Assembly: GCA_043821945.1 (NCBI GenBank)
Contig: JBDRCH010000005.1
Location: 14,799 to 78,798 of the forward strand
Length of the DNA stretch: 64,000 bases
Source: an archaeon
GTDB lineage: Archaea > Nanobdellota > Nanobdellia > Pacearchaeales > GW2011-AR1
Reading direction: 5' to 3'
A model generated the notes under the pieces. It had not been told where the DNA came from and made no database searches. It saw only the letters and a program-made list of their open reading frames with translations. Positions 14,484 to 60,731 of the stretch are shown here, piece after piece (the stretch's first letter is position 1; every line of letters starts with the position of its first letter). The translations under genes and the position numbers were made by a program.

Positions 14484-14567
14484 AAAACAATCTTCAAAGT
14501 TAGATTATATAAAGATTTCTATTATGTAATCACTATCAAATGAATACACAAAAGAAATAGTTGAAAA

Positions 14568-14756: not shown

Positions 14757-14780
14757 TCTTAATAAATTATTTTTTTCATT

Positions 14781-17072
14781 TTATCCCAAATAAGTATTCT
14801 TGATTGGAACAGCAGATTTAGATGATTTTAAGAAAGCTTCTTCTACTTTTTTGTATGCTTCAAAAGTTGATGGCGTTACACTTGGTTTAACTTTGTCTAA
14901 TGATTGTTCAAAATTCTTTTTACTAACTTCTTTTGAATTAATAGATTCTCTCAAAGCAAGCATTCCAGCTTCCCTTACTAAAGATTCTAAATCAGCCCCA
15001 GTATATCCTGCTGTTTTTTTTGCAATTAGTTTTAAATCAACATTCTTAGCCAGAGGCATATTTTTTGTATGTATCTTTAAAACTTTTAATCTACCTTCTT
15101 CTTCAGGAGCATTTACTAACAATATTCTGTCAAACCTTCCAGGTCTTAATAACGCAGCATCAAGCATATCAGGTCTGTTTGTTGCAGCAATAACTAAAAT
15201 ATCTTTCAAATCTTCTAGACCATCCATCTCTGAAAGTAATTGGTTCAAAACTCTTTCAGTAACTTTTGTTCCTTGTTCTACTCCTCTTCTTCCTGCTAAT
15301 GAATCAATTTCATCAAAAAAGATTATACAAGGAGCAACTTGCCTTGCTCTTTCAAAAATTTTCCTAACTCCTTCTTCAGATTTACCAACCCACATACTTA
15401 ATAACGAAGGTCCTTTGACTTGGATAAAATTAGCTTCAGATTCTTTTGCAACTGCTTTAGCCAAAAGAGTCTTACCTGTTCCAGGAGGTCCATATAACAA
15501 AATTCCCCTTGAAGGTCTAATTCCAATTCTTTTGAAACACTCTGGAAATTTCATAGGCCATTCAACTACTTCTTTTAATTCTTCTTGAACTTTATCTAGA
15601 CCTCCAACATCATCCCAACTCACATTAGGAGTCTCGACTAAAACCTCTCTCATTGCAGAAGGTCTAACAACTTTTAATGCATCCATAAAATCATTGTGTT
15701 TAACAATTAATTTCTCTAAAATTTCTTGAGGAATAGATTCTTCATCTAATTGAATTTGATGGATATGTTTTCTAAGAACATTCATAGCAGCTTCCTTACT
15801 CAAAGATTCCAAATCAGCACCAACAAAACCATGAGTTAAAGAAGCAATTTCATCAAGCTTAACATTTTTTGTCAAAGGCATTCCTCGAGTATGAATTTTC
15901 AAAATCGCGAGTCTTCCCTCTTTACCAGGAACATTAATTGCCACTTCTCTGTCAAATCTTCCTGGTCTTCTCAATGCAGGATCAATTGCATTAACTCTAT
16001 TTGTAGCACCAATAACAATAACTTTTCCTCTTGCTTTAAGACCGTCCATCATAGTTAAAATCTGGGAAACAACTCTCCTCTCAACTTCTCCAATTACTTC
16101 TTCTCTTTTTGGAGCTATTGCATCAAGTTCATCAATAAAAACAATTGCTGGCGCTGTTTTCTCAGCTTCTTCAAAAAGATCTCTAATTTTCTTTTCACTT
16201 TCTCCATAAAACTTAGACATTATTTCAGGCCCATTTAATAAAATAAAATTAGCTTCTGATTCATTTGCAACTGCTTTAGCCAAAAGAGTCTTACCTGTTC
16301 CAGGAGGTCCGTGCAACAAAACTCCTTTAGGAGGTTGAATTCCCAATCTCTGAAAAATCTCAGGATGTTTCATTGGAATCTCAACCATTTCTCTTATCTT
16401 TTTGATTTCTTCTGTTAATCCCCCAATATCTTCATAATTAATCTCAGGAATTTTTTCATCACTTATTTCCACTGCTTTTGGATTCAAAACAACTTGGGTG
16501 TTTTCAGTTATTCTAACAGGAACATTTGGATTTGCATTAACAATCAAGAATCTTATTTGAGCAATAGTCCCTCCAAGATTTCCAAAACCTCCAAAGATAT
16601 CACTCAAATTTCCAAAAAGATCATTCATATCTTCAAATTCTTCAGACATTAAATCTCTCCTTCTTTGAGTTCCACCCAAAACAACTACATCCCCTTTAAC
16701 AACTGTTCTTCCAAGCAATCCATTTTTTAGATTTTCTGGATCACCCTGAACCATAATTCCTTTTTGCGCAGGAGCAATAATGATTTTTTTAGCTTCTTTT
16801 ACTTCTGTCTTAGAGACTACAACAACATCACCAATACCTGATTTTGAATTTCTCCTCATAATACCATCAATTCTAATAATTCCTTCTCCAACATCAGCAG
16901 GATAAGCTCGATCTGCAATTGCAACAGTTTCCCGATTTCCTTTAATCATAATCGGGTCTCCTCTCTTAATACCCAACTCATTCATAACACCCAAATCTAT
17001 TCGAGCAATTCCTTTATACACATCATCTTGCTGTGCTTCAACAACTTTTAATTGAATTGATTTTTTTGTCAT
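14781..17072 (-). CDS. cdc48: Cdc48/VCP-like AAA+ ATPase (double-psi barrel N domain plus two AAA domains)
   Basis: two copies of [15 protein letters not shown] Walker A, DEID/DELD Walker B, second region of homology. Confidence 0.92.
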
Positions 17073-17275
17073 TTTTGAATTTTTAAATAAATTTCATCAA
17101 AACATTTAGGACATAACTGACCTGCACCCTCGACATAATACCTTCTTGAATGAATAGATAAATTAACCTCACTAAGAGTTTCTTTCTTGCAACAAACACA
17201 TTTATCATACTTACTCTCTTGATTTAATTTATCATTTTTTGAAGTTCTACCAAACAAACTTATCAAATTTCCCAT
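17069..17275 (-). CDS. Small zinc-ribbon protein (68 aa) overlapping the cdc48 start
   Basis: CVCC ... CPKC. Confidence 0.3.
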   Translation of the reverse strand: MGNLISLFGRTSKNDKLNQESKYDKCVCCKKETLSEVNLSIHSRRYYVEGAGQLCPKCFDEIYLKIQK

Positions 17276-17276
17276 T

Positions 17277-17624
17277 TTATTTCTTTATCTCCTCAAAATT
17301 TAAACTTAATCTTCCAAAATCTTCAAAACATAATCTTACCATGTCATCCATGATTTTTTCTTGTTCTCTCATAAAAGAAACTATCTCTTTTGGAATTGAA
17401 ACAGCATAACTATTTCCAACAAGTCTCATCTTAACTCTAAAGTTTTTATTTTTAAGACTTATAAATTTATTGTATTCTTGCTCATCAACAGGATGAATTA
17501 TTTTTTCACTGCACTTTGGACAAACCATTAATCTAAATAAAAATCCATTTTTAGAAACCTGTGCTTTTTGCATTTTTGAATCACATTTCTTGCAAAGTAT
17601 TTTGTTGTCAAATATATCTGTCAT
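17277..17624 (-). CDS. Zinc-ribbon protein with an AbrB/SpoVT-like swapped-hairpin segment
   Basis: CKKC..CPKC ribbon; VGNSYAVSIPKEIV resembles AbrB/MazE DNA-binding hairpin. Confidence 0.4.
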   Translation of the reverse strand: MTDIFDNKILCKKCDSKMQKAQVSKNGFLFRLMVCPKCSEKIIHPVDEQEYNKFISLKNKNFRVKMRLVGNSYAVSIPKEIVSFMREQEKIMDDMVRLCFEDFGRLSLNFEEIKK

Positions 17625-17625
17625 T

Positions 17626-17799
17626 TTAATTTTGTTTTAGCAAAATTAATGTTAAAAAGAAAATTACAATTGAAAACATTTCTTCAAAACTGGGTTTAAA
17701 ATAATTAAAGCTGAATAAAGCGATTATTGAAACTCCTAAGGCTATAAGGAGATTCACAATAGTGTATTTCTTATCTTGTTTTAATTTGTTTGAATTCAT
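17626..17799 (-). CDS. Unlisted small single-TM protein (57 aa) directly upstream of the zinc-ribbon gene
   Basis: ATG at 17799 (complement); hydrophobic stretch IVNLLIALGVSIIALFSF; stop 1 nt before the next start. Confidence 0.25.
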   Translation of the reverse strand: MNSNKLKQDKKYTIVNLLIALGVSIIALFSFNYFKPSFEEMFSIVIFFLTLILLKQN

Positions 17800-19256: not shown

Positions 19257-19349
19257 CGGCCCCAGAGGGATTTGAACCCACGACACCCAGATATCTCCTG
19301 AAAAATTTACTAAGAGTCTGGTGCTCTAGCCAGACTGAGCTATGGAGCC
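19257..19349 (-). tRNA. tRNA-Lys (anticodon CTT) with an ~18-nt intron after position 37
   Basis: acceptor GGCTCCA/TGGGGCC, D arm GCTC..GAGC, anticodon stem CCAGA/TCTGG, loop CTCTTA[intron]A, T loop TTCAAAT; one U-U mismatch in the T stem. Confidence 0.75.
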
Positions 19350-24867: not shown

Positions 24868-26724
24868 ATGAAAAGAGTGACAAGCACATGCATCTATTGT
24901 GGTTGTGGATGTAGATTAACCTATCATATTGACAAAAATAAAATAACCAAAATCACGGGATGCAAAAATGATGATATTAGTGAAGGAAAACCTTGCATAA
25001 AAGGTTTAACAATTAACGAGGTATTTAATAAAAATAGGATTACCAAACCATTAATTAGAAAAAATAACAAATTAATTCCAACAACTTGGGAAAATGCAAT
25101 AGATCAAATTCATAAAAAAATATCCCAAACAAATTCAAAGGACATTTTTCTTAATGGTTCTGGAAAAATCACAAACGAAGACAATTTTCTTCTATACAAA
25201 CTTGGAACACAAGTGTTTAAAACAAATAATATTGACTCTTGCTGTGGGAGATTATGTCACATTTCAACAGTCAAAGGAATCAACGATTGTTTCGGAGCAT
25301 CTAATTTAACAAAAATGTCTTATTTAGAGAACATAGATACATTATTCATAATAGGTTCAAATCCTGCAGTTAGTTATCCTGTTTTCTGGAACAAAGTTCT
25401 AAAGAGAAAAAACAAACTAAAGATAATCTCAATTCAACCAATATTAAATATAACTTCAAAATTTGGTGATGCCTTCTTAGAAATAGAACCAGGAACAGAA
25501 ACAGCTTTGTTAAATGGCATAATTAATTATTTAATCAAAAATAACTCCTTTATAGAAGAAGCAAAGCAAATTCCAAATTTCAAAAAATTAATCAACATTG
25601 TAAAAAAATATTCTCCTTCATACATCTCAGAAATCTGCAGAATCAAAAAAGAGGATTTTCTAAAAATATGCGAATTAATCAAAAAATCAAAAAAAATAGG
25701 AATCTTCCACGGGATGAATTTCACCCAACATTTAAACTCCCTTGAAAATGTTCATTCATTGATGAATCTTGCAATTTTAAAAAATACTTATTTGTTAACC
25801 CTAAGAGGAGAAATCAATGTGCAAGGAGTTGGAGACATTTTTGCACCCCATAAGTTGAACGGCAATATAATAAAATCATTTATTCTAAACCCTTGCAAAG
25901 TTGCATTTATCACAGAATTCAATCCAGCCCAATCTCTTCCTGATTTAGACAAAACTCACAAAAAATTAGAAAAAATATTCATAGTCTACTTTGGGTCTTA
26001 TTTTAACAAAACTTGCGAGTTTGCTGATGTCATTCTTCCAATTCCAGCACTCTTTGAAAGTCACGGAACAATCACAAATGGGGAACAAAGAATAAGATTA
26101 GTAAATTCTCCAATAAAAACAGAAAAAACATTTCTACAAATTTCACAACTTATTGCAAAAAAATTCAACAAACAAAATTTATTCAATTATTCAAACTCAA
26201 AACAAATTTTTCAAGAAATAATTAAATCGGTTCCAGAATATAATGGAATTAATTCAGATGAGATATACAAAGGCAGGGATGGATTTGTTCCAAAGCAGAT
26301 TAGATTCAACAAATTTTTTCCAGAACCCTACAAAGGAAAAGATGACACAAGAATAAAAAAATATCCTTATTTGCTTACAACATTTAGAGACAAAGACCAA
26401 TTTTTAACAGGAGAAATAACCTCCCAATCACAAACACTTTCAAAGCTTGACATAGATAAAATGTGCATTTACATAAATCCTCAAGACGCAAAGGGGTTTA
26501 ATCTCAAGGATAAAGACAAGATAAAGATTATTTCCAAGGTTGGAGAAATAATTGGCTTTGCATTAATCTCAGATCAAACTCCAGCAGGACTTATAGCAAC
26601 AAGATTTCATTACAAAGAAATGCTTGTAAACAAATTATTTCCTCCAAAATTCGATGACATAACATTCACCCCAAATTACAAAGCTGTTGCTGTGAGAATT
26701 GAGAAAATTAAACCATTATTTTAA
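24868..26724 (+). CDS. Molybdopterin oxidoreductase, formate dehydrogenase alpha-like (Cys-type), orphan
   Basis: N-terminal 4Fe-4S TCIYCGCGCRL...CIKG; RLCHIST with Cys at the Sec/Cys position; C-terminal molybdopterin-binding domain. Confidence 0.65.
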   Translation: MKRVTSTCIYCGCGCRLTYHIDKNKITKITGCKNDDISEGKPCIKGLTINEVFNKNRITKPLIRKNNKLIPTTWENAIDQIHKKISQTNSKDIFLNGSGKITNEDNFLLYKLGTQVFKTNNIDSCCGRLCHISTVKGINDCFGASNLTKMSYLENIDTLFIIGSNPAVSYPVFWNKVLKRKNKLKIISIQPILNITSKFGDAFLEIEPGTETALLNGIINYLIKNNSFIEEAKQIPNFKKLINIVKKYSPSYISEICRIKKEDFLKICELIKKSKKIGIFHGMNFTQHLNSLENVHSLMNLAILKNTYLLTLRGEINVQGVGDIFAPHKLNGNIIKSFILNPCKVAFITEFNPAQSLPDLDKTHKKLEKIFIVYFGSYFNKTCEFADVILPIPALFESHGTITNGEQRIRLVNSPIKTEKTFLQISQLIAKKFNKQNLFNYSNSKQIFQEIIKSVPEYNGINSDEIYKGRDGFVPKQIRFNKFFPEPYKGKDDTRIKKYPYLLTTFRDKDQFLTGEITSQSQTLSKLDIDKMCIYINPQDAKGFNLKDKDKIKIISKVGEIIGFALISDQTPAGLIATRFHYKEMLVNKLFPPKFDDITFTPNYKAVAVRIEKIKPLF

Positions 26725-34755: not shown

Positions 34756-35069
34756 ACCCTAAAAAAATGCAGGCAGTAATGAAGCAGATGGGCATTGCCC
34801 AAGAAGAAATAGATGCTTCAAAAGTAATAATTGAAAGATCAGACGACAAAAAAATTATCATTGAAAATCCAACTGTAACAAAAATCAAAATGCAAGGTCA
34901 AGAAACCTTTCAAATTGCAGGAGAGATTTCAGAAGAATCAGAAGAAATTGGAGTCTCAGAAGAGGACATTCAAACAATAGTTGAAAAAACAGGCTGTAGT
35001 GAAGAAGAAGCTAAAAAAGTATTAGAAAAAACAGGTGATTTGGCTGAAGCAATTTTAGAACTAAGTTAA
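34740..35069 (+). CDS. nac: Nascent polypeptide-associated complex protein (NAC alpha with UBA domain)
   Basis: MFPNLDPKKMQAVMKQMGI NAC start; C-terminal UBA EEDIQTIVEKTGCSEEEAKKVLEKTGDLAEAI. Confidence 0.75.
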   Translation: MFPNLDPKKMQAVMKQMGIAQEEIDASKVIIERSDDKKIIIENPTVTKIKMQGQETFQIAGEISEESEEIGVSEEDIQTIVEKTGCSEEEAKKVLEKTGDLAEAILELS

Positions 35070-35833
35070 TTCTTAACACTACTTCCAGCATCTACAAAAA
35101 TTATCTGGCCAGTAATATTTCTTGATAAACTAGAACATAAAAACAAAGTAGTATTCGCAACATCTTTTTGAGTAATGTTTCTTTTCAAAAAAGATTTCTC
35201 CTTATGAACATCAAGATGCTCTTCAAATCCAGAAATTCCAGACGCAGCCATTGTCGAAATAGGTGAAAAAGAAATTCCATTTACTCTTATTTTTTTGTCA
35301 CCAACATCATTTGCAAGATAACGAACACTTGCTTCAAGAGCAGCTTTAGAAACACCCATAACATTATAATTTTCTGAGACTCTTTGTGACCCAATATAAG
35401 TCATAGCAATAATACTTCCTTCAGAATTCATCATCGGATGAACTCTCCTTGTTAATTCAACAAGAGAATAAGCACTAACTTCTTGACTCTTATTATAACC
35501 ATTTAAATCAACATTCATAAATTTACCTTTAAGAAAATCTCTTTTCGCAAAAGCAATACTATGAATCAAAAAATCAACATTTCCAAATTCTTTCTTAACC
35601 CTCTTAAAAAAACCATCAAGTTGATTATCATCAGTAACATCACAAATCATTCCAAAAGAATTCTTCAAAGACTTCACAAGTTCTTTTGCTGTTTCCTCGC
35701 TTCTATCTTGATAAGCAGCAGCAATCTGAACACCCTCTTGATTCAATATTCTAGCAATATTCCAAGCAACACTACTATCATCTCTAATACCAAAAACAAT
35801 TGCCTTTTTTCCAAATAAATTCAAATCCACCAT
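35066..35833 (-). CDS. fabI: Enoyl-[acyl-carrier-protein] reductase (NADH), bacterial FabI type
   Basis: GKKAIVFGIRDDSSVAWNIARIL nucleotide-binding segment and YNVMGVSKAALEASVRYLA (Tyr-x6-Lys) align closely with E. coli FabI. Confidence 0.88.
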   Translation of the reverse strand: MVDLNLFGKKAIVFGIRDDSSVAWNIARILNQEGVQIAAAYQDRSEETAKELVKSLKNSFGMICDVTDDNQLDGFFKRVKKEFGNVDFLIHSIAFAKRDFLKGKFMNVDLNGYNKSQEVSAYSLVELTRRVHPMMNSEGSIIAMTYIGSQRVSENYNVMGVSKAALEASVRYLANDVGDKKIRVNGISFSPISTMAASGISGFEEHLDVHKEKSFLKRNITQKDVANTTLFLCSSLSRNITGQIIFVDAGSSVKN

Positions 35834-40458: not shown

Positions 40459-41853
40459 ATGGTGAAAAAATTATCTAAAGAAGAACTTTCTAAAATAAAA
40501 AGCCAAAAGAAAAAAGCAAGACATGAGAATATAAAAGAAGGCATATTCGCAACAGGAAGAACTTCATTTGGAGATTATTTTGTTTCTCCATTTGCGATTG
40601 CAATTAATTCAAGTAGTTCAATGGTTGCAATGCTTAATTCTATTTCAGGACTTCTCGGACCAATAAGTCAATTATTTGGATCAAGACTTATGGAAAAATA
40701 TTCTCGGAAAAAAATTATGGTAAAATCTGTTTTTTTAGAATCACTTATGTGGTTGCCTTTAATCGCAATTTCAATTTTGTATTATAAAGGAATTTTAATA
40801 AATATTCTTCCAATTTTACTTTTGCTTTTCTTCTCATTTTTCACAATTCTTGCAAATATCGGAAGCCCTGCATTTTTTTCATGGGTGGGGGATTTAGTAG
40901 AAGAAAAACGTAGAGGAAGATGGTTTGCAAAAAGAACCCTTCTGACAGGGTTTATTTCAGTTATATTAGCAATATCAGCCTCATTTTTTTTAGATTATTT
41001 TAAAAGAAACAATTCAATAATGCAAGGATTTGTTATTCTATTTGCACTTGCACTTTTCTCAAGATTAATTTGCTGGAAAATTTATAAAAAGCAATATGAA
41101 CCAAAACTAAAACTAAAAAAAGGGGACTATTTTTCATTTTGGGATTTCATAATTCAAGCACCAAAAAACAATTTCGGAAAATTCTCCATATTCAGATTTT
41201 TCTTTTCATTTGCCTGTGCAATCTCTTCCCCTCTTTTAGTAATTTACCTTCTTAGATACCTAAATTTTTCCTATACTTTATATATGATAATAATCTTTTC
41301 AGGGACCATATTTTCTCTATTAATATTAGAACTTTGGGGGAAAATTTCAGATAAACTTGGAAGTTATAAAACACTTTCTATCGCAACTCTAATCATCCCA
41401 ATAGTTCCTTTACTTTGGATAGTATCGCCATCTCCAGTTTATCTCATATTTGTTCCGTCCCTTATTAGTGGAATTTCATGGGCTGGATTTCACCTAACTG
41501 AAAAAAATTTCATTTATGACAATGTAAGCACCCCAAAAAGAGGTCTCGCACTATCTTATTATAATCTACTTTGGGGGATAGGAACATTCTTGGGCGCGGG
41601 TTTAAGCGCAATATTGATAAAATATCTCACAATATCGATAATTGAACCAATAATAGCAATTTTTATTTTAAGTTCTATAGCAAGAATGATTGTAATATTT
41701 TTATGGCTCCACAAAATAAAAGAAATAAGAGTAACAAAAAAATTCAACAATTCAAAAATCTTTAAAGAGATCATAACTAAAGAAGCAAGACCAACAATCA
41801 ATCAAGAAATTCATGAGATCATGTCTATAAAAAAATATCTCGATGTAAAATAA
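40459..41853 (+). CDS. Major facilitator superfamily transporter
   Basis: ~12 predicted TM helices, basic loop between TM2 and TM3. Confidence 0.5.
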   Translation: MVKKLSKEELSKIKSQKKKARHENIKEGIFATGRTSFGDYFVSPFAIAINSSSSMVAMLNSISGLLGPISQLFGSRLMEKYSRKKIMVKSVFLESLMWLPLIAISILYYKGILINILPILLLLFFSFFTILANIGSPAFFSWVGDLVEEKRRGRWFAKRTLLTGFISVILAISASFFLDYFKRNNSIMQGFVILFALALFSRLICWKIYKKQYEPKLKLKKGDYFSFWDFIIQAPKNNFGKFSIFRFFFSFACAISSPLLVIYLLRYLNFSYTLYMIIIFSGTIFSLLILELWGKISDKLGSYKTLSIATLIIPIVPLLWIVSPSPVYLIFVPSLISGISWAGFHLTEKNFIYDNVSTPKRGLALSYYNLLWGIGTFLGAGLSAILIKYLTISIIEPIIAIFILSSIARMIVIFLWLHKIKEIRVTKKFNNSKIFKEIITKEARPTINQEIHEIMSIKKYLDVK

Positions 41854-42724: not shown

Positions 42725-43297
42725 ATGACAAAAGGATTATATCATTATTTAAGAAATGCTTGGAAAAAACCCGACAAAAAAACTCTTAGAGAAAGAATGA
42801 TCGAATGGAGAAGATCACAGGTTTTTACAAAAGTTGATAAACCACTTAGACTAGATCGGGCTCGAGCTTTAGGATACAAAAGTAAAAAAGGTTTTATAAT
42901 AATTAGAATAAGAGTGAAAAGAGGAGGTCATAAAAGACCAAGACCAAATAAAGGAAGAAGAAGCAAACGACTTCACACAAGAAAAAATTTAAAGATGTCT
43001 TACAAATGGATTGCAGAACAAAGAGTTGAAAGAAAATACAAAAATTTAGTTGTATTAAATTCATACCAAATTGGTAAAGACGGTATGAATTATTTTTATG
43101 AAGTAATCTGTGTAGACCCGCAAAGACCAGAAATCAAAAACGACAAAACAATAAACTGGACAACAAAAAAAATTAATCAAAAAAGAGCAATGAGAGGATT
43201 AACTTCAGCTGCAAAGAAATCTAGAGGATTAAGAAACAAACATCCAACTTCAAAAGTTAGACCTTCTGTCCGAGCTGGTAAAAGACGAGGGAAATAA
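42725..43297 (+). CDS. rpl15e: 50S ribosomal protein L15e
   Basis: MTKGLYHYLRNAWKKP...ERMIEWRR...LDRARALGYK...RVKRGG signature. Confidence 0.85.
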   Translation: MTKGLYHYLRNAWKKPDKKTLRERMIEWRRSQVFTKVDKPLRLDRARALGYKSKKGFIIIRIRVKRGGHKRPRPNKGRRSKRLHTRKNLKMSYKWIAEQRVERKYKNLVVLNSYQIGKDGMNYFYEVICVDPQRPEIKNDKTINWTTKKINQKRAMRGLTSAAKKSRGLRNKHPTSKVRPSVRAGKRRGK

Positions 43298-43647: not shown

Positions 43648-44229
43648 ATGCAATTAAAAAAAAGTGAAACACAAAAAAATTTATTAAAAGCATTTGCAGG
43701 TGAAAGCCAAGCAAGAAACAAATATACTTATTTTGCGTCAGTTGCAAAAAAAGAAGGCTATGAACAAATTTCAGCAATATTTACAGAAACAGCAGATAAT
43801 GAAAAAGAACATGCAAAGATTTTCTTTAAACATTTACAAGAATGCGAAGGTGAAGCTTTAGAGATTACAGCAGATTATCCAGCAGGAAAAATCGGCACAA
43901 CAAAAGAAAATCTCTTAGCATCTGCAGAAGGAGAAAAAGCAGAATGGGGTGAAATATATCCTAAATTTGAAAAAACAGCTAGGAAAGAGGGCTTTGAAGA
44001 AGTTGCAAAATCATTTAAAGAAATTGGAGAAGTTGAAGAACAACATGAAAGAAGATATCGGAAATTATTAGAAAATATAGAACAAAATCAAGTTTTCAAA
44101 AAATCAGAAGAAGTAGAATGGAAATGCAGGAATTGTGGTTATATTCATAAAGGCTTAAAAGCTCCACAAATTTGTCCTGCATGCGAGCACCCCCAAGTAT
44201 ATTATGAACTACAATGTAAAAATTATTAA
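43648..44229 (+). CDS. rbr: Rubrerythrin (ferritin-like diiron domain + C-terminal rubredoxin-like domain)
   Basis: FAGESQARNKY diiron motifs, EKEHAKIF, C-terminal CRNCG...CPACEHP. Confidence 0.85.
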   Translation: MQLKKSETQKNLLKAFAGESQARNKYTYFASVAKKEGYEQISAIFTETADNEKEHAKIFFKHLQECEGEALEITADYPAGKIGTTKENLLASAEGEKAEWGEIYPKFEKTARKEGFEEVAKSFKEIGEVEEQHERRYRKLLENIEQNQVFKKSEEVEWKCRNCGYIHKGLKAPQICPACEHPQVYYELQCKNY

Positions 44230-44237
44230 AATTATTC

Positions 44238-44555
44238 TCAATCATTCCTCTCTCGACAACTAGCCCAATATTCATTCATTTCAATTCCTGCCTTAAAATG
44301 GCTCTCACCATTTACTCTAAGTTTCCAGTAAATTATCTGACCATTAACAGTATCAATTCTTCTAAGAACTCTTTTCCAAGTTCTCTTTGTAGCACCTCTT
44401 TTTTGAGGAGACGCTTTAACATCCTTAAGATCTTTTTCTACTTCTTTTTTCCATGCTAAAACTTCCTTCATCTCTTCTTGAATTTCTTTATATTTTTCTT
44501 TAATTTCTTCCTCTGTTAAAGGGTCTTTCTTAAGTCTAACATATCTCAAGCTCAT
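44238..44555 (-). CDS. Hypothetical protein (105 aa)
   Basis: ORF only. Confidence 0.3.
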   Translation of the reverse strand: MSLRYVRLKKDPLTEEEIKEKYKEIQEEMKEVLAWKKEVEKDLKDVKASPQKRGATKRTWKRVLRRIDTVNGQIIYWKLRVNGESHFKAGIEMNEYWASCRERND

Positions 44556-44640
44556 TTTAAAGGATAACTTATCTGATTTAAATATCTTTTCAAAAATTAT
44601 CCATCAAAAAATATATTAACTGCTTCAGATTAAATTTCTT

Positions 44641-45027
44641 ATGACACAAATTCAACAAATCTATAAATGTGACATATGTGGAAATATAATTGAAGTTTTG
44701 CATTCTGGAGCAGATGCTTTAGTTTGTTGCAATCAACCAATGATTTTACAAAAAGAAAATTCAATAGACGCTGCAAATGAAAAGCATATCCCTGTAATTG
44801 AAAAAACACCTGAAGAAAAAACAATTGTCAAAATAGGAAAAATTGAACATCCTATGACAAATGAACATTATATTGAATGGATTGGTTTAGAAAATAAGGA
44901 CAAAAACAAAATCTGCAGAAAAAATTTAAAACCAGAAGAAAAACCAGAATCAAAATTTTGTGCTAAAACAGAAAATGTAAAAGCAAGATGTTATTGCAAT
45001 TTACATGGATTATGGAAAAGTAAATAA
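44641..45027 (+). CDS. dfx: Desulfoferrodoxin (class I superoxide reductase)
   Basis: N-terminal desulforedoxin YKCDICGNIIEVL..LVCCNQPM; SOR domain EKHIPVIE, HPM..EHYIEWI, CNLHGLW. Confidence 0.85.
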   Translation: MTQIQQIYKCDICGNIIEVLHSGADALVCCNQPMILQKENSIDAANEKHIPVIEKTPEEKTIVKIGKIEHPMTNEHYIEWIGLENKDKNKICRKNLKPEEKPESKFCAKTENVKARCYCNLHGLWKSK

Positions 45028-45030: not shown

Positions 45031-45459
45031 ATGAAACTTCTAAAAGAGATAAAATTCATTGTAATACATCATTCTCATAGGAATATAGATTCAATTGAAA
45101 GGATCAAAAACATTCATGTCAATATAAACAAATGGGAAGATATTGGTTATCACTGGATCATTGACAAAGAGGGTAATCTCATAAAAGGAAGAAATGAAAA
45201 ATATATTGGAGCTCATGTTTATGGACACAACGATAATTCATTAAGTGTTTGTCTAATTGGAAATTTGGATGAATTTTATCCAACTCAAAAACAAATTCAA
45301 ACATTGATTAAATTTCTAAAAGAGAATTCATTAAAATACAAAATTCCAAAAGAAAATATTCTTGGACATAATGAATTTACAAATGTTACAAAAACTTGCC
45401 CTGGAAAACTCCTAAACATAGATGAAATTAAAGAGATAATGAATGATACCAAATCTTAA
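45031..45459 (+). CDS. Zinc N-acetylmuramoyl-L-alanine amidase (Amidase_2, T7-lysozyme/PGRP/AmpD fold), no signal peptide
   Basis: IVIHHS (Zn His), GYHWII (catalytic Tyr), LGHNEF (Zn His), TKTCPG (Lys/Cys) align with T7 lysozyme. Confidence 0.85.
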   Translation: MKLLKEIKFIVIHHSHRNIDSIERIKNIHVNINKWEDIGYHWIIDKEGNLIKGRNEKYIGAHVYGHNDNSLSVCLIGNLDEFYPTQKQIQTLIKFLKENSLKYKIPKENILGHNEFTNVTKTCPGKLLNIDEIKEIMNDTKS

Positions 45460-45493: not shown

Positions 45494-47200
45494 ATGAGAT
45501 ACAAAAAATTAGCACAACTTTATGAAGAACTTTCCTCTACAACAAAACGTCTCGAAAAGATAGAGACTCTCTCAAAATTCTTAAAATATTTGCCAAAAGA
45601 AGATAAAGATATTATGTATTTACTCTTGGGAGATATTTATCCAGAATATGACGAAAGAAGGATTGGTATAAGCAGTCAATTAGCAATAAAAGCAATTTCC
45701 AAATCAACAGGAACTCCTGAAAAAAAAGTGATTCATGAATGGAAAATTTTGGGTGACCTTGGTCTTGTTGCTGAAAAATTTACTTTGCATAAAAAACAAA
45801 CAACTCTTGATTCCCATGTTTTAACAATGAAAAAAATCTTAGAAAATCTAAGAAAACTCCCTGAACTCGAAGGAAAAGGAACAGTTGCGAAAAAACTTTC
45901 ACTAATAACAGAACTTCTAACTTCAGCAGATCCAATTGAAGCAAAATATTTAGTGAGAACATTAATTGGAGATTTAAGAATAGGGGTTAAAGAAAGCACA
46001 ATAAGAGATTCCATAGCAGAAGCATTTTTTGATGACAAAAAACAGGCTACTAAAAAAATACAAAAAGCTATTGATAAATCAAATGATCTGTCGAGAGTTT
46101 TTGAAGTTGCACAAAAAAGCAAATTAAAAGAACTAGACAAGGTGCATCTTCAAGTTGGAAAACCAATAAAAGCAATGCTAGCTCAAAAAGTCCTAACAAT
46201 TGCCGAAGGATTTAAAGCATTAGGAAAACCCTGCGCAGTAGAATATAAATACGATGGATTCCGAATGATTATTCACAAAAAAGGTAACCAGATAATTTTA
46301 TTCACTCGAAGTCTTGAAAATGTAACTAAACAATTTCCTGAAGTTGTTGATTATATTCTAAAATATGTAAAAGGAGATTCATTCATCTTAGATTCAGAAG
46401 CAGTAGGATTTCATAAAAAAACAAAAGAATACACTCCATTTCAAGACATCAGTCAGAGAATAAGAAGAAAATATTCTATAGAAAAAATTCAAAAAGAACT
46501 GCCAATTGAAATAAATGTTTTTGACATTTTATATTACAATGGAAAATCGCAATTAGACGAACCTTTCAAAAAAAGAACAGAATTAATAAAAAAAATTATC
46601 CAAAAACATCCTTATAAGATAATTCATGCAAAACAAATAATTACTTCTGATGAAAAAAAAGCAAAAGAATTTTACGAAAGAGCGCTTAAAGACAATCAAG
46701 AAGGAGTTATGATGAAAAACCTTGAAGCAAAATACCAACCAGGTTCAAGAGTGGGTCATATGCTAAAAATAAAACCAGAAGAAAGAGATCTTGATCTTGT
46801 AATAACCGGTGCAGAATATGGGACAGGAAAAAGAAGTGGTTGGCTTTCAAGTTTTATTTTATCTTGTAGAAATGAAAAAGGAGAATATTTGGAAATAGGA
46901 AAAGTTGGAACAGGAATTAAAGAAAAAGCAGATCAAGGAATTTCATTTGGAGAATTAACTGAAAAAATAATGCCTCTGATTATTTCAGAAAAAGAAAAAT
47001 CAGTAAAAATAAAACCAAAAATAATTGTCTCAGTAACTTACCAAGAAATCCAAAAATCACCAAATTACAATTCTGGGTGGGCATTAAGATTCCCGAGATT
47101 CACAGCTCTCAGGCAAGACAAACCTCTTTCCGAAATTGCAACATTAAAAGAAATTGAAAAAGATTTTCAAAACCAAAAAAGAAACTGGAGATATGGTTGA
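45494..47200 (+). CDS. lig: ATP-dependent DNA ligase
   Basis: adenylation motif I AVEYKYDGFR, motifs III-VI, OB domain. Confidence 0.88.
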   Translation: MRYKKLAQLYEELSSTTKRLEKIETLSKFLKYLPKEDKDIMYLLLGDIYPEYDERRIGISSQLAIKAISKSTGTPEKKVIHEWKILGDLGLVAEKFTLHKKQTTLDSHVLTMKKILENLRKLPELEGKGTVAKKLSLITELLTSADPIEAKYLVRTLIGDLRIGVKESTIRDSIAEAFFDDKKQATKKIQKAIDKSNDLSRVFEVAQKSKLKELDKVHLQVGKPIKAMLAQKVLTIAEGFKALGKPCAVEYKYDGFRMIIHKKGNQIILFTRSLENVTKQFPEVVDYILKYVKGDSFILDSEAVGFHKKTKEYTPFQDISQRIRRKYSIEKIQKELPIEINVFDILYYNGKSQLDEPFKKRTELIKKIIQKHPYKIIHAKQIITSDEKKAKEFYERALKDNQEGVMMKNLEAKYQPGSRVGHMLKIKPEERDLDLVITGAEYGTGKRSGWLSSFILSCRNEKGEYLEIGKVGTGIKEKADQGISFGELTEKIMPLIISEKEKSVKIKPKIIVSVTYQEIQKSPNYNSGWALRFPRFTALRQDKPLSEIATLKEIEKDFQNQKRNWRYG

Positions 47201-47257: not shown

Positions 47258-48235
47258 ATGGAAAAGGGGTTATACTTATCAACATTAGTTTTTATTTTTT
47301 TGATTAATCTTGTTAGTTCAGATATCGGGGTTTTGGGTTCAGATGGAAAAAATTATTCGATTGTTAATCAAGGTGAAGACTTTGAATATAATTTGATGAT
47401 TAGAAACAACCAGCAGATTGGATCAAATCTTTATGTAACTCAAGTAAATATAATCCTTCCGACTCATCTTAAATTCAAACAAGGAACAGAATACACAAAT
47501 GCACTTTATGAAAATTTTTCAAACACAAGTTCAGTATTAAGCTGGAGTAACCTAACTGGTTTTCTTATTGCTGAAGAAGAAACAAAAAATTTCAAATTTA
47601 CAGCAAACACAAACACTGAAGATAATTTTACAATAGGTATATGGGCAAGAGACCCTTCAGGACAATCTATTTCAGAATTTTATGTAAACATCAATTTAAC
47701 ACAAAGTCCTTTAGGGTGTGTTTCTAATTGGACTTGTACAGACTGGTCTGATTGCACAGGAGGATTTCAAACAAGAACGTGTGAAGATGAAAATGAATGT
47801 GAAAATGAATCAGGAAAGCCTCTTGAAAGAGGATACTGCTCTTCAACAGAATGTGTTCAAAAATGGAATTGTACAAAATGGTCTGAGTGTATAGGGGAAT
47901 CTCAAATAAGAAGTTGTGTTGATACAAATTTATGTGGAAATAATTCACAAAAACCACTAGAATCACAATCATGTACTCCAACAACAAATTGCATTTCCCA
48001 ATGGAGTTGTGGAGAATGGAGTAAGTGTATAGAAAACTCTCAAATAAGAACATGCGCTGATATAAATAAATGTGGAGAGTATGAAACTAAACAAGAGACA
48101 AAAAATTGCAAAAGAGATGCCCTATTAATTTTTATAATAATAGTCATAATCTTAATAACAATAACAATAATTGTAACAATAATAACAATAGAAACTATAA
48201 GAAAAAATTCATATGAAAAAATTGAAACTCAATAA
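47258..48235 (+). CDS. Surface protein with signal peptide, four tandem ~45-aa Cys-rich repeats and a C-terminal TM anchor
   Basis: repeats C..W.C(T/S).WS.C...Q.R.C.D.N.CG; C-terminal LLIFIIIVIILITITIIVTIITI. Confidence 0.5.
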   Translation: MEKGLYLSTLVFIFLINLVSSDIGVLGSDGKNYSIVNQGEDFEYNLMIRNNQQIGSNLYVTQVNIILPTHLKFKQGTEYTNALYENFSNTSSVLSWSNLTGFLIAEEETKNFKFTANTNTEDNFTIGIWARDPSGQSISEFYVNINLTQSPLGCVSNWTCTDWSDCTGGFQTRTCEDENECENESGKPLERGYCSSTECVQKWNCTKWSECIGESQIRSCVDTNLCGNNSQKPLESQSCTPTTNCISQWSCGEWSKCIENSQIRTCADINKCGEYETKQETKNCKRDALLIFIIIVIILITITIIVTIITIETIRKNSYEKIETQ

Positions 48236-50983: not shown

Positions 50984-51089
50984 AATTTACGTTAACATAC
51001 TATAAATTAGAGTACTATTGATTACCTCCTTATTATAAGATTATCAATAATTTACTATTGATAATCTAATGTTAATTGCAATCTTGCCC

Positions 51090-51359
51090 TTAGATATCTC
51101 TAGCAGAAATAAAATTATAATCTCCTAAAGGACCATCAACAAAAATCAATTCTTTGTATATCCCAATAAATTTTTCTGATAAATCAGGATTTATTGCTAC
51201 AATTGTTGCATATCGATTCCATCTTGGTTCTCCTGGGCCCCCCATATTTTCAGGTAGGTTTTCATATGTCCTGCCTATCTTCACAGGTATGTCACCAAGT
51301 TCATCCCTTAATAGATCTGTTAATTCTGTGGGTATTGTAAATGTTTGTTGTTGATTCAT
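51090..51359 (-). CDS. Hypothetical protein (89 aa)
   Basis: ORF only. Confidence 0.3.
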   Translation of the reverse strand: MNQQQTFTIPTELTDLLRDELGDIPVKIGRTYENLPENMGGPGEPRWNRYATIVAINPDLSEKFIGIYKELIFVDGPLGDYNFISARDI

Positions 51360-51430
51360 AATAAACAGAGATTATCTGAATTATATAAATTTATCGGCCA
51401 AGATTGCAACTTCTTCGTCGCTTCGCTTCT

Positions 51431-51448
51431 CGACCACGCTGCGCTTTC
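51431..51448. repeat. GC-rich 18-mer CGACCACGCTGCGCTTTC, copy 2 (extended similar block ~51410-51535 with repeated CTTCG motifs)
   Basis: identical to 43538-43555; CCACTTCG recurs at 51523-51530. Confidence 0.7.
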
Positions 51449-51765
51449 GCTTCACTCGTCGGGGCGTATAACAAGAATTTAACGGAAAAATGCTCGGCTC
51501 GGGCTTCACCCAAATTTTTCTTCCACTTCGTTCCAGAAAAACTTCGTATATCTCTAACGTTATTCTAAACCACCTATTAACTCATAAATATTTAAAAACT
51601 CTAAAAAATTTTTCCTTATATTAAAAGATATTTTAAATCGCAAGAAAATAAAACAATTAAATTAAGGGAACTTCATTTCACGCGATTTTCTAAGGAGGCT
51701 ATTGAAGAAATTGCCTCGCAGGAACAAGAAGAGAGATCCCAAAGAACCACTTAGGTTCTTTTAAT

Positions 51766-52506: not shown

Positions 52507-54066
52507 TTAGCATCCATTTTTCCATTCACCAATCCCAATCATTAAATCACCGAGAGTTACTGTTCCTGATTTCCAATCTCCAATATAACTCATTAATTCA
52601 GAAAGACTAACATCTCCACTTGTATCAGAATCAGCTCCTGATTGACATGTTCCTGAACCTTCTTCATTCATACATAAAGAACTACAACCATCCTCACTAG
52701 CAGTATTTCCATCATCACACTCCTCACTTCCTTCAATTATCCAATCTCCACATGTCGGATAAGTCAGAGGATGAGGATATGTATATGGAGTGTAACCTGG
52801 TTTTTCTATAAGATTATAATCTCTATTCTGCTGAATCCAATCTGCCATATTTTGTACAACCCCACATTCATCATCACAACTTCCTCCAAGATCCACTACT
52901 CCAATATTAGTAAAACTCCTTTGGTTTCCTAAAAAGTTATTTCCCCAAATATAAAGAGGTTCTGAATCTTGATTTTGACCTCTTCCTATCTGATCATAAG
53001 AGGGATATCCCTCTCCTGGATTATTAATTGTATTGCAAGCGCATTTTTCATAACTAGCTCCTCTTATTGTAGCGGCATTACACCAATCTTCATCAGACCT
53101 ATAGTTAGTTAGTCTAATATCATAATTAAGACTTCCATCATTGATAATATTATTGTTATAGACTACCCCGCTTCCTCCTCTAAGAAACATGAAATCAGTC
53201 TGGCTAAAAGAAGAGTCTATATAGAGGTTATTCTCATAAATTTCATACCAACGGGTTGATCCTTTAATATTACCACAAAAACCATGAGCATCAATGTTTC
53301 CGTTATGCACATCATTATAACGCAGGACATATCTTGCTCCTCCAAAACCCGCTATAATATGATGTGCTCCTGTAGGATTCACATAATTATTAATAAAAAC
53401 ATTATTCTCTACAAATATTGAATTATCTGTTCCAACATTTGTTGGGTTGGTCCAATGTTCAGATTCTCCTGTAACCTGTATTGTCTCTTTACCTGCAGTA
53501 TCAAAAGTACAGTTATTAACAATTGCATAGGGACCACTTATAACTATCGCAGAACCTAAAACCCAATTATCATTCATGTAACCCTCACTAAATTTACAGT
53601 TATCTATCCTAACAATTGCATCTGTTGAAATTCCTATTACATTAATATGGCTAACTGCACCTACATTTGTTGTTGATCCCTTAAACCAAATACCAGTCAC
53701 CCTTATCTCGTGAGAATCATCACTTCTTATTTCAAACATTCCATCATATTCTAAAAAGGGTTTTGTATTTATTATAACTGTGCCCCCCATATCTGCTCCT
53801 GCTCCTTGAATTGTTATTCCTTTTCCAGATATAGAAACATCAGGAATTCCATCCCATTCACATTCTCCAGCAGGGATTCTTACAGTATCTCCATCAACAG
53901 CAGAATCAATACATTCTTGAACATCTTGTTGATTACAAGTATCTGCCTGCCATAATCCTTCTCCCATATTCTGACATGCTGCACTAACACCTCCACTAAA
54001 ACTAACAAAAAATATTCCAACCAATAAAAGAATTATCAACCTCTTTGTAACCTCTAAGTTATTCAT
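52507..54066 (-). CDS. Secreted right-handed beta-helix protein with a myxo-type Cys-rich repeat (CGDW...EECDDGN...DGCS..C) and a dockerin-like C-terminus
   Basis: signal peptide; repeated N-rich beta-helix rungs; CGDWIIEGSEECDDGNTASEDGCSSLC; DSDTSGDVSLSELMSYIGDW/GTVTLGDLMIGIGEW. Confidence 0.5.
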   Translation of the reverse strand: MNNLEVTKRLIILLLVGIFFVSFSGGVSAACQNMGEGLWQADTCNQQDVQECIDSAVDGDTVRIPAGECEWDGIPDVSISGKGITIQGAGADMGGTVIINTKPFLEYDGMFEIRSDDSHEIRVTGIWFKGSTTNVGAVSHINVIGISTDAIVRIDNCKFSEGYMNDNWVLGSAIVISGPYAIVNNCTFDTAGKETIQVTGESEHWTNPTNVGTDNSIFVENNVFINNYVNPTGAHHIIAGFGGARYVLRYNDVHNGNIDAHGFCGNIKGSTRWYEIYENNLYIDSSFSQTDFMFLRGGSGVVYNNNIINDGSLNYDIRLTNYRSDEDWCNAATIRGASYEKCACNTINNPGEGYPSYDQIGRGQNQDSEPLYIWGNNFLGNQRSFTNIGVVDLGGSCDDECGVVQNMADWIQQNRDYNLIEKPGYTPYTYPHPLTYPTCGDWIIEGSEECDDGNTASEDGCSSLCMNEEGSGTCQSGADSDTSGDVSLSELMSYIGDWKSGTVTLGDLMIGIGEWKNGC

Positions 54067-54129: not shown

Positions 54130-54402
54130 GTGTTAATCGGTAGATTTTTAAGTAACATTTTATTTTATATAATTATGAATAAAGAGCTCCCTATAAAATC
54201 TTGGAGATGGATTTTTTATATTCTTGGTTGGATTTTTGGAGCATTAAATCTTGTGTTTTGGGCTTGGCAATATTTAATGTATATGGGAGATGAAAAAAGT
54301 GACAAATTTATTTCTAATCAATTCCATAAGAGAGTATATTATTGGGGGGTTTTATTTACAGCGATAATCTTAATAACAATTATTTTTGTGTTGATAGATT
54401 AA
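54130..54402 (+). CDS. Small membrane protein (90 aa)
   Basis: two hydrophobic helices. Confidence 0.3.
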   Translation: MLIGRFLSNILFYIIMNKELPIKSWRWIFYILGWIFGALNLVFWAWQYLMYMGDEKSDKFISNQFHKRVYYWGVLFTAIILITIIFVLID

Positions 54403-55279
54403 TCAATTCCAACCATTTATTATCAGAATTTAATTTTAAGTCAGTTGCTAATTCATAAGGGCATCTTTTAAGAGTTTGATGTTTAGTTATGAAATTGTAA
54501 TAAACTGCATAACCTTTCATAATACTATTTACACTCTCTACACTTCCGTGTAATCCTCTGAAAGTTTTTGTTCTGTGTCTTATTTTATTATGTAACCTTT
54601 CTATTAAAATATTAAAACCTTCACCTTTAGAAGCATTTACTTGATTATGCTCTACTCCGAAATATTTGTTTTTACTTTTTAATCCAAAAGTTTTTCTTAT
54701 TGCATTTTCATAAGTTAAAAGTCCGTCAGTAGTTACGACTTTAATCTGTTTTTCTGTTTTCTCTTTCGCTTTCATTAGAACAGATTTTATCTCATCTTTC
54801 CCTCTTGACTTACAAAATTCAGAAGCTACCATAAAACGAGTTTTAGTATCTATACTATCAATAAACCAATTTTCTTCTTTTCCACCTTTAATATCCTTTC
54901 TTCGTGAATATTGCATTTCATCTATTTGTAATTCACTTCCTGTTTGAAGTTTAAGTTTATCTGTGAAATTACTAATTTGATTTGAATACTTTACAACCCA
55001 TTTATAGATTGTAACATCTGAACTATTATGGGGGTAAAAAGCCCTTAGATGTTCTCTTATTTTTCTTGTGCTTACTCCTCTAAAAAATAAGTCAAGACAT
55101 AAAGTAATCTTTTGAGGATTATTTCTCATTCTCTTGAAGCCGTCATTCAAAACAAATCTGTGAGAACATTCCTTACATTTGTATCTTTGAATTAATCCTC
55201 TGTTCTCTGTCTTTCGTTTGCCGTCTTTCTTGATTAATCTTGACTGACATTTTGAGCATATTATTTCTTTGTTTTTCAT
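54380..55279 (-). mobile_element. IS1/IS1595-like DDE transposase with an N-terminal zinc finger (probable start at MKNKEII; the listed ORF's first 24 codons translate the upstream repeat)
   Basis: CSKCQS...YKCKECSHRF finger; LQIDEMQYSRRKD...WFIDSIDTKTRFMVA...VVTTDGLLTYENA DDE pattern. Confidence 0.6.
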
Positions 55280-55308
55280 ATTATAATTAGGCACCCGAAC
55301 TATATAAA
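55275..55308. repeat. 34-nt promoter-like repeat, copy 1 (ATAATTAGGCACCCGAACTATATAAATGTATCGG), 29/34 identical to copy 2
   Basis: lies immediately upstream of the transposase start on the coding strand; contains TTTATATA about 21 nt before the ATG. Confidence 0.65.
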
Positions 55309-55404
55309 TGTATCGGTACCCGAATATATTTATATTATTATATATAATCATATAGTTTCAGAAAAATAGGAAAGGTTTATATATGTTATCATATATGATA
55401 ATAT

Positions 55405-56001
55405 ATGAGTAATAATGATAATACACTTTTCTGTTATAGATGTTATCACCTTTGGAAAAAAAGGAAATCTGTTGCCCCAAAATATTGCCCTAAGTGTAAA
55501 AGTCCTTATTGGAATAGACCAAGAAGAAAAGTAAAAAAAGATATAGTATTAAAAATGGAAGAAATGATTATAAAAATTCACGATAGAATAATTGAATTAA
55601 GTGGTGGGGAAAAGGGTGTCAGAGAAGAAGGTGGAATATACAACTCTACATTTAAATTAATTAACCATCAATATAAAAATCAAAGAAATCCTATTAAAAT
55701 AGGAGCATTTGCTCTGAATGAGTTTGCTAAAAGACATTATTTTGTTGATGGAAATAAAAGAACAGCTTACGCAATCTCTAAAATATTTATGTTAATTAAT
55801 AGATGTCATTTGATGATAGATTATGGTGAGGCAACAAATTTTATGCTTAAAGTTGCAGAGCACAAAAGCAAAGTTACTTATGATGATATAAAAATTTGGC
55901 TTACAAAATATTGTAAAATTATAGATAGAAAAGATGTGGAAAATTATTTAAACAAAGCATTCGTAAATGTAACATTAGGGAGTGGAGAAAATGGCGAATA
56001 A
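55405..56001 (+). CDS. Fic/Doc-family protein (Doc-like toxin) with an N-terminal zinc-ribbon fusion
   Basis: HYFVDGNKRTA (HxFx(D/E)GNxR Fic/Doc motif); N-terminal CYRC...CPKC. Confidence 0.65.
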   Translation: MSNNDNTLFCYRCYHLWKKRKSVAPKYCPKCKSPYWNRPRRKVKKDIVLKMEEMIIKIHDRIIELSGGEKGVREEGGIYNSTFKLINHQYKNQRNPIKIGAFALNEFAKRHYFVDGNKRTAYAISKIFMLINRCHLMIDYGEATNFMLKVAEHKSKVTYDDIKIWLTKYCKIIDRKDVENYLNKAFVNVTLGSGENGE

Positions 56002-60610: not shown

Positions 60611-60731
60611 CGTCCCCGGCTGGACTCGAACCAGCGACCTATCGGTTTCTGCAAAATCAAAAGATTTTGTAGCAAATTTTGACATTTCAAAATTTAACAG
60701 CCGATCGCTCTACCAACTGAGCCACAGGGAC
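60611..60731 (-). tRNA. tRNA-Asn (anticodon GTT) with an ~48-nt intron after position 37
   Basis: acceptor GTCCCTG/CGGGGAC, D arm GCTC-AGTTGGTA-GAGC, anticodon stem ATCGG/CCGAT, loop CTGTTA[intron]A, T arm GCTGG-TTCGAGT-CCAGC. Confidence 0.75.

Follow-up and report, generated by a model that had tools for sequence, protein, structure and literature searches.

A signal-less Amidase_2 protein resident in a Pacearchaeota-like archaeal lineage and its possible part in the use of bacterial muropeptides

The subject of this analysis is a small gene in a 64-kb stretch of contig JBDRCH010000005.1 (the window, by which we mean this whole stretch). The window is a segment of an archaeal chromosome with 30% GC, and the gene, here called the amidase gene, encodes a protein of the Amidase_2 type:

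45031..45459, + strand: amidase gene, Amidase_2, predicted single-domain Zn N-acetylmuramoyl-L-alanine amidase (open reading frame, Pfam, PDB, structural model, MAFFT)

The open reading frame (ORF) runs from an ATG to a TAA codon and specifies 142 amino acids (aa), the whole of which is filled by a single domain, Pfam Amidase_2 (PF01510; 73.8 bits against a cutoff of 26, E = 2.2e-20, profile positions 3-131 of 131). Sequence matches in the PDB were the endolysins LysC/LysCS and Psa and T7 lysozyme (E = 5e-15 to 9e-13), together with many peptidoglycan recognition proteins (PGRPs), and the PHROG matches were amidase/endolysin (lysis) families (E = 3.5e-31 and 2.4e-28). An identical protein is held at NCBI as MFH1787450.1 and named "MAG: peptidoglycan recognition family protein [archaeon]", MAG standing for metagenome-assembled genome; its contig measures 84,414 bp. 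In the MAFFT alignment with T7 lysozyme, the Zn ligands H17, H122 and C130 of the phage enzyme correspond to H13 (codon 45067-69), H113 (45367-69) and C123 (45397-99), and its catalytic residues Y46 and K128 to Y40 (45148-50) and K121 (45391-93). It is this Tyr and Lys that tell enzymes from PGRPs that only bind. The initial annotation of the locus had described a zinc amidase of the T7-lysozyme/PGRP type with every catalytic residue in place, and both the Pfam profile and the residue mapping bear this out; on alignment, no Zn ligand or catalytic residue has been lost. The AlphaFold model, built on 26 homologues (pLDDT 93.9), has the alpha/beta fold of T7 lysozyme. Foldseek matched it with a probability of 1.00, with TM-scores relative to the query (TMq) of 0.85 to 7f5i and 6ssc, 0.83 to 6fhg and 0.77 to T7 lysozyme 1lba, and of 0.70-0.76 to AmpD at 16-18% identity. 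By its profile, Zn ligands, catalytic Tyr/Lys and fold, the protein belongs to the Amidase_2/PGRP superfamily.

To place the protein in its family, we joined it with 84 homologues from a search of 5.8 billion proteins, giving 85 members. Nearly all of these homologues are 131-160 aa long and consist of Amidase_2 alone, and the few that bear names are Nanoarchaeota or Pacearchaeota proteins. Each of the Zn ligands H13, H113 and C123 is present in 84 of the 85 members, the exception being a gap, and all three are invariant in alignment A1; Y40 occurs in 85/85 and K121 in 82/85, and in A1 these two do not vary either. The pocket residues held in common with T7 lysozyme (W35, G39-Y40-H41, R54, H62 and N67) are nearly invariant as well, with W35 found in 78 and R54 in 84 members, while position 34 is Gly in 47. 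The amidase active site is intact and under purifying selection. Within the substrate pocket (residues 53-77), 13 of 25 positions are identical to T7 lysozyme, and the spacing from W35 to R54, 19 residues, equals that of T7 lysozyme and also that of the Gly-Trp...Arg254 signature of PGRPs that recognise peptidoglycan of the diaminopimelate (DAP) type, a rule that has been described along with its exceptions (PMC8347126). The (G/K)34-W35...R54 arrangement thus weakly predicts a DAP-type substrate.

The family is further marked by what precedes the active site. Exactly 12 residues stand before the catalytic His in 67 of the 85 members, and no signal peptide, membrane anchor or wall-binding module was found in the close members, about 80 in number; an N-terminal hydrophobic anchor occurs in one distant member only (36% identity). 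For the window protein, hydropathy over the whole length gave neither a signal peptide nor a transmembrane segment, the highest 17-residue Kyte-Doolittle mean being 0.35. As the catalytic His is preceded by only 12 residues and the protein has no hydrophobic stretch at all, the absence of a signal peptide, stated already in the initial annotation, stands. The family is basic, with a median pI of 9.9.

When GTDB species were scanned, each through one genome, 269 relatives were obtained, of which the best 80 are considered here. DPANN archaea share 38-64% identity with the amidase, bacteria of the candidate phyla radiation (CPR/Patescibacteria) 40-45%, and a clade of signal-less proteins of ~150 aa from the Bacillus cereus group, Ureibacillus and Lysinibacillus 31-37%, and the relatives in Planctomycetota are multi-domain proteins. 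The Bacillaceae members (loci L029-L068 in our numbering) are conserved chromosomal, single-domain Amidase_2 proteins of ~150 aa without signal peptide and, CPR bacteria apart, the cellular proteins closest to the DPANN family; their gene neighbourhoods are variable.

That the amidase is encoded in an archaeon, as the initial annotation held, is evident from the archaeal and core genes across the window. They encode RFC, FEN1, a family-B DNA polymerase (PolB), CDC48, a topoisomerase, Nre, a RadA-like protein, eRF1, ValRS, MetRS, NAC, L15e, an ATP-dependent DNA ligase, TBP, MCM, aIF2-beta and FtsZ. The loci closest to the amidase are labelled as Pacearchaeota, Woesearchaeota or Nanoarchaeota MAGs, and the contig is archaeal, from a Pacearchaeota/Woesearchaeota-like member of the DPANN. 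Around the amidase gene the following features were recognised:

40459..41853: conserved transporter of the major facilitator superfamily (MFS), two genes 5' of rpl15e
42725..43297, + strand: rpl15e, ribosomal protein L15e, conserved upstream anchor of the amidase gene in relatives (Pfam, synteny)
43648..44229, + strand: rbr, rubrerythrin (Pfam; NF045767, 299 bits vs cutoff 200)
44238..44555, - strand: gene for a conserved DPANN protein of 105 aa, on the opposite strand between rbr and dfx (homologue search)
44577..44617, + strand: AT-rich intergenic stretch, candidate promoter (TATA-like boxes, by eye)
44641..45027, + strand: dfx, desulfoferrodoxin (2Fe superoxide reductase; Pfam; TIGR00320, 160.6 bits vs cutoff 146.9)
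45494..47200, + strand: ATP-dependent DNA ligase, conserved downstream anchor, 34 nt 3' of the amidase gene (Pfam, synteny)

Searching the related loci by tblastn with the neighbour genes of the window, we obtained 17 syntenic genomes (the window, L001-L012, L018, L024, L028 and L161). The conserved block consists of genes for the MFS transporter, a Zn-ribbon/Hsp20-like protein, L15e, the amidase, the DNA ligase, a Cys-rich surface protein, TBP and MCM; it was found in L001-L012, L018, L024 and L028 and extends over 20 kb in L161 (a 213-kb contig), and is thus common to the window and at least 16 related genomes. In most syntenic loci the amidase gene lies directly 3' of rpl15e; it stays downstream of rpl15e and, where the ligase gene was recovered, is almost always upstream of it. 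The stop codon of rpl15e overlaps the amidase ATG in L028, and a single nucleotide separates the two genes in L010. In some genomes the amidase gene is thus translationally coupled to rpl15e, and such coupling suggests constitutive expression. In the non-syntenic DPANN and CPR loci, all-against-all BLAST and Pfam revealed no conserved neighbour, the genes found there encoding PheRS, thioredoxin, a histidine kinase and uncharacterised proteins.

Some members of the block have features of their own. The Cys-rich protein encoded at 47258..48235 (+ strand) has a signal-like N terminus, repeated C..W.C..WS.C motifs and a C-terminal transmembrane segment, matches no Pfam family, and is conserved 3' of the ligase gene in L005, L009 and L028. 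A second Cys-rich, surface-like protein, with the DUF4215 Cys-rich repeat, is encoded at 52507..54066 (- strand) of the window. Both look like surface proteins and are candidate cell-contact proteins. L161 carries two LAGLIDADG elements that do not occur in the window, a free-standing homing endonuclease gene just 5' of rpl15e (8004..8669) and an intein bearing a LAGLIDADG domain in the MCM gene (14235..17627).

Immediately upstream of the amidase gene in the window, the dfx frame including its stop codon ends at 45027, and 3 nt (GAA) lead to the amidase ATG at 45031, a spacing that the initial annotation gave correctly and from which it argued for an operon with the oxidative-stress genes rbr and dfx. 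TATA-like boxes discerned by eye, TTTAAATA (44577-84) and AATATATTAA (~44608-17), lie 25-60 nt 5' of the dfx ATG and make this stretch a candidate promoter for a dfx-amidase transcript; a scan for promoters of the sigma-70 type and for terminators, which does not cover archaeal promoters, returned chance-level matches only. In this genome dfx and the amidase gene are probably co-transcribed. For rbr, the operon proposal fails. The opposite-strand gene at 44238..44555 intervenes between rbr and dfx, which rules out a transcript common to rbr, dfx and the amidase gene. The intervening gene is real, because its product has at least 218 homologues at 66-79% identity in Nanoarchaeota/Pacearchaeota MAGs. 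The 105-aa protein (NCBI MFH1787448.1, locus tag ABH811_01520) is Lys/Glu-rich and has 30 invariant residues, including the motifs YWKLR and SHFKA; its model is a three-helix bundle (pLDDT 91). Pfam, NCBIfam and PHROG gave no match for it, and a fold search against the PDB gave no significant one. It is a very conserved, DPANN-specific protein.

Across the syntenic genomes, the redox genes prove to be variable companions. They stand just upstream of the amidase gene in 5 of the 17 (Rbr and Dfx in the window, L009 and L024; Rbr alone in L005 and L161), downstream as Rbr-Dfx in two (L007 and L028), and in the remaining 10 neither lies within 6 kb. A thioredoxin gene overlaps the 3' end of the amidase gene in L034, which is not syntenic. 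Redox genes thus recur beside the amidase in at least three arrangements. If the amidase were tied to oxidative-stress defence and formed a true operon with dfx/rbr, both this recurrence and the small dfx gap (3 nt here, 0 nt in L009) would find an explanation, but the conserved opposite-strand gene cuts rbr off from dfx, the redox cassette switches sides or is missing while the amidase stays put, and we know of no mechanistic link between a peptidoglycan amidase and the detoxification of superoxide or peroxide. We therefore consider such a tie very unlikely. The 3-nt spacing marks a variable insertion site beside the amidase and not a conserved functional operon, and of the co-transcription that had been proposed only a probable dfx-amidase transcript in this one genome is left. 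It may be that redox genes recur only because the interval from rpl15e to the ligase gene is a hotspot for insertions. Alternatively, the adjacency of Rbr, Dfx or thioredoxin might mean that the amidase, as a Zn-Cys enzyme, is redox-protected, or co-expressed with these proteins, under oxygen exposure.

In this Pacearchaeota/Woesearchaeota-like DPANN lineage the amidase gene is a long-standing resident that has been inherited vertically and sits fixed in a collinear housekeeping block. Its GC content is native, and so is that at third codon positions (GC3, 0.196 vs 0.13-0.22 in the neighbour genes). Pairwise distances of the amidase correlate with those of L15e (Mantel r = 0.67, with 0 of 2000 permutations as high) and of the ligase (r = 0.62, 14 of 2000). 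Among the 2.9 million viral contigs of IMG/VR, the best matches shared 35-47% identity with the amidase, no closer than CPR or Bacillaceae proteins. The initial annotation had called for a check of the flanks for phage genes; profile searches found none in the 64-kb window, and the PHROGs run on ten of its ORFs matched the amidase itself and otherwise gave only two weak matches of unknown function on the Zn-ribbon protein. The only mobile-element-like feature of the window is a DDE transposase gene (IS240/Mutator-like, - strand) that adjoins a Fic/DOC-domain gene (+ strand) at 54380..56001, ~9 kb from the amidase gene.

One could suppose that the amidase gene is a phage or bacterial passenger that arrived by recent horizontal transfer, as a prophage remnant or through contamination of the bin, given the ultimately bacterial or phage character of the family and the transposase and Fic genes 9 kb off. 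This is highly improbable in view of the native GC and GC3, the archaeal core genes on both flanks for tens of kb, the position conserved in at least 16 other genomes, the co-divergence with L15e and the ligase and the level of identity to the best viral matches; synteny and composition refute it. A phage or prophage endolysin was likewise rejected by context, the flanks being archaeal housekeeping genes with no holin or structural genes. What the evidence supports is that the gene was acquired long ago and has descended vertically since, so that the phage or bacterial source which the initial annotation had considered survives as an ancient event only. In a neighbour-joining tree, the DPANN sequences fell together with four from CPR bacteria, and those of Bacillaceae and viruses were placed outside; as the bootstrap of this grouping was 13%, we draw no conclusion on donor or direction of transfer.

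The same housekeeping context, vertical inheritance and occasional coupling to rpl15e would also suit an enzyme that cuts something other than peptidoglycan, for instance an endogenous amide-linked glycopeptide or metabolite, the Amidase_2 fold having been recruited to a housekeeping task. No peptidoglycan-related neighbour was seen in any locus examined, which agrees with this idea. However, the catalytic set and the pocket (W35, G39-Y40-H41, R54, H62, N67) are retained almost without exception, the nearest relatives outside the DPANN belong to peptidoglycan-bearing bacteria (CPR, Bacillaceae) and phages, and to our knowledge no non-peptidoglycan substrate has been described for the family. 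A substrate of this kind seems decidedly unlikely to us.

Among characterised enzymes, T7 lysozyme (gp3.5; 1lba/1aro) resembles the amidase in its size of ~150 aa, its single domain, the lack of a signal peptide, the His/His/Cys Zn ligands with catalytic Tyr/Lys (TMq 0.77, 30% identity) and the spacing of the G/K-W...R pocket signature. It differs in being a phage gene, whereas the amidase is chromosomal in an archaeon, has no T7-type RNA polymerase to regulate and lies outside any holin or lysis-cassette context. The best matches of all, in answer to the question left by the initial annotation whether endolysins, AmpD or PGRPs are closest, are globular single-domain endolysin amidases, namely LysC/LysCS of Clostridium intestinale (6ssc/6srt), Psa of a C. 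perfringens phage (7f5i) and Ts2631/Ph2119 of Thermus phages (6fhg/6su5), at E = 5e-15 to 4e-13 and TMq 0.83-0.85, with the same catalytic residues and no cell-wall-binding domain. Their identity to the amidase is only 22-30%, and these endolysins carry N-terminal extensions that help them gain access to the wall, whereas the amidase begins 12 residues before the catalytic His.

The kinship with endolysins is the starting point of the main rival explanation, a lytic or attachment enzyme directed against bacteria, which would leave the cell by non-classical means, be it in vesicles, across a cell-cell bridge, through the lysis of some cells of the population or with the help of a holin-like partner, and open the wall of a bacterial host or prey beside extracellular GH23 proteins. 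The closest structures (7f5i, 6ssc/6srt, 6fhg) are lytic endolysins whose activity needs no wall-binding domain, the PHROG families matched best are those of lysis, and the amidase family is basic. Bacteria-directed lysis has been proposed for Pacearchaeota/Woesearchaeota (Castelle 2021, Vigneron 2022), and archaeal peptidoglycan hydrolases can kill bacteria, and 68% of them lack a signal peptide (Strock 2025). Yet signal peptides, membrane anchors and binding modules are absent from all close family members, and no conserved holin-like or secretion gene adjoins the amidase in the loci examined. Moreover, weaponised hydrolases are usually patchy and mobile (Strock 2025), whereas the amidase gene keeps its syntenic place, descends vertically and is coupled to rpl15e in some genomes. 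On balance, a lytic or attachment role appears unlikely, if still deserving of serious attention.

AmpD is the cytoplasmic 1,6-anhydro-MurNAc-L-Ala amidase of Gram-negative peptidoglycan recycling (MurNAc, N-acetylmuramic acid). It shares with the amidase the superfamily and the lack of a signal peptide, and its cytoplasmic removal of stem peptides from imported muropeptides offers an analogy. As an orthologue of AmpD, however, the amidase was rejected: it scores 22.3 bits against a cutoff of 143 with the NCBIfam equivalog NF008758, only residues 66-139 (the C-terminal half) being aligned, and AmpD is the weaker structural match (TMq 0.70-0.76, 16-18% identity). Neither the window nor the loci fetched contained an AmpG or a NagZ partner. 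The AmpD-like role that the initial annotation had mentioned is therefore possible as an analogy only, with a structure nearer to endolysins. Animal catalytic PGRPs such as Drosophila PGRP-LB (7nsx/1oht) share the fold and the catalytic residues (TMq ~0.78) and belong to hosts that have no peptidoglycan and degrade bacterial muropeptides, but they are secreted or membrane-bound immune proteins, larger and equipped with a PGRP-specific segment.

Wall-degrading domains encoded in archaea have been described before (Woldo/Danwoldo, Strock 2025; GH23 giants, Castelle 2015/2021, Vigneron 2022), and the Nanoarchaeota/DPANN are especially rich in domains that degrade bacterial walls (Strock 2025, Castelle, Vigneron 2022). 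Those proteins are secreted or extracellular, multi-domain and patchy in occurrence, whereas the amidase is minimal, signal-less and syntenic. Modular archaeal hydrolases were defined by a minimum of one catalytic Pfam domain together with one or more that bind the cell wall (Strock 2025). The amidase, with Amidase_2 only and no wall-binding domain, does not qualify as one and was missed by that survey because a wall-binding domain was required by design. We found no paper on this amidase family in DPANN.

Taken together with the core claims on family, active site and inheritance, the reading that we prefer, namely that the protein is an active MurNAc-L-Ala amidase which acts on bacterial muropeptides, most likely inside the cell, has in our estimate an even prospect of being right. 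By analogy with T7 lysozyme and catalytic PGRPs, H13, H113 and C123 would hold a Zn2+ ion that activates a water molecule and polarises the carbonyl of the lactyl amide, and Y40 and K121 would stabilise the transition state, so that the stem peptide is freed from MurNAc. Because the organism makes no murein and the family is without export signal or wall-binding module, we infer that the substrate is bacterial peptidoglycan material, most likely in the form of soluble muropeptides that the cell has imported. The amidase may strip these of their stem peptides, and an auxotrophic cell could thereby salvage amino acids and amino sugars, a role like that of AmpD carried out by an enzyme not orthologous to it. 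In bacteria, lytic transglycosylases yield anhydro-muropeptides that are then processed by a cytoplasmic amidase. In the archaeon, as a hypothesis, extracellular GH23 lytic transglycosylases might generate the muropeptides and LdcA might trim the freed peptide. Giant extracellular proteins with GH23 lytic-transglycosylase domains are known from the smallest Pacearchaeota/Woesearchaeota genomes (Castelle 2021), and abundant LdcA has been reported in Pacearchaeota, for which peptidoglycan necromass was proposed as a source of amino acids (2024 ISME J chimney study, PMC11537232). An intracellular site of action is favoured by the signal-less close members and by a gene that is syntenic and looks constitutive, unlike the patchy weaponised hydrolases.

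Several observations weigh against this intracellular reading. In its fold the protein comes nearer to lytic endolysins than to the cytoplasmic enzyme AmpD, and phage endolysins, too, are without signal peptides, so that a missing signal is no proof of intracellular action. The basic character of the family would also suit binding to an anionic cell wall; low-GC DPANN proteomes may, in our expectation, be Lys-rich in general. Profile searches of the 64-kb window detected no further peptidoglycan-related gene, with AmpG, NagZ, LdcA, AnmK/MurQ and GH23 all absent from it, nor was an importer or another gene of a muropeptide pathway found near the amidase in the window and the loci examined. The conserved MFS transporter shows no affinity to AmpG: as a candidate for an AmpG-like permease it was rejected, having only weak matches to oligosaccharide/sugar MFS families in NCBIfam and to LacY in the PDB. 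The co-occurrence of LdcA and GH23 with the amidase in the same genomes is taken from the literature. A complete route, in which Pacearchaeota-like DPANN run a constitutive cytoplasmic catabolism of muropeptides, from fragments released by GH23 through an importer to a non-AmpD Amidase_2 enzyme and LdcA, with the bacterial wall as a staple nutrient, is accordingly offered as a tentative proposal that we hold at well below even strength.

Other features of the window are recorded here for completeness. A bacterial-type enoyl-ACP reductase is encoded at 35066..35833 (- strand; FabI-like, adh_short_C2, E = 1e-78), and this fits the bacterial fatty-acid synthesis genes known from the DPANN group. 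A molybdopterin oxidoreductase is encoded at 24868..26724 (+ strand), in an otherwise minimal DPANN genome. Rfam scans of the window, including the ORF-free stretch at ~51000-51700, identified tRNAs only. Two more tRNA genes of 93 and 121 nt, at 19257..19349 (- strand) and 60611..60731 (- strand), were recognised by Rfam and not by ARAGORN; they presumably carry introns, as is usual in archaea. The stretch at ~51000..51700, about 700 nt with no ORF of at least 90 aa and a GC content that locally rises to 0.39 vs 0.30, had no Rfam match even at E <= 1; it may represent a gene in decay or else a structured RNA that has diverged.

Peptidoglycan-degrading enzymes in DPANN are already established; what is new here is that the amidase is a conserved, syntenic gene of the lineage. 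Probably these archaea attack bacterial wall material or use it as food, which in general terms has been proposed for the group before. Whether the abundant, uncultured Pacearchaeota/Woesearchaeota depend on bacteria or on other archaea has so far been argued mainly from giant GH23 proteins, and a small, soluble, easily expressed and lineage-conserved enzyme provides a direct experimental handle on dependence on bacteria. Its substrate preference, anhydro-muropeptides versus intact sacculi and DAP-type versus Lys-type, would tell what the cells take, and its localisation how they take it. Surveys limited to modular or secreted hydrolases undercount the peptidoglycan-active enzymes of archaea. 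If muropeptide catabolism of the kind proposed here holds true, the bacterial wall, from living hosts or from necromass, would feed an entire lineage of archaea, for whose way of life the amidase, as a core gene passed on vertically, would serve as a marker.

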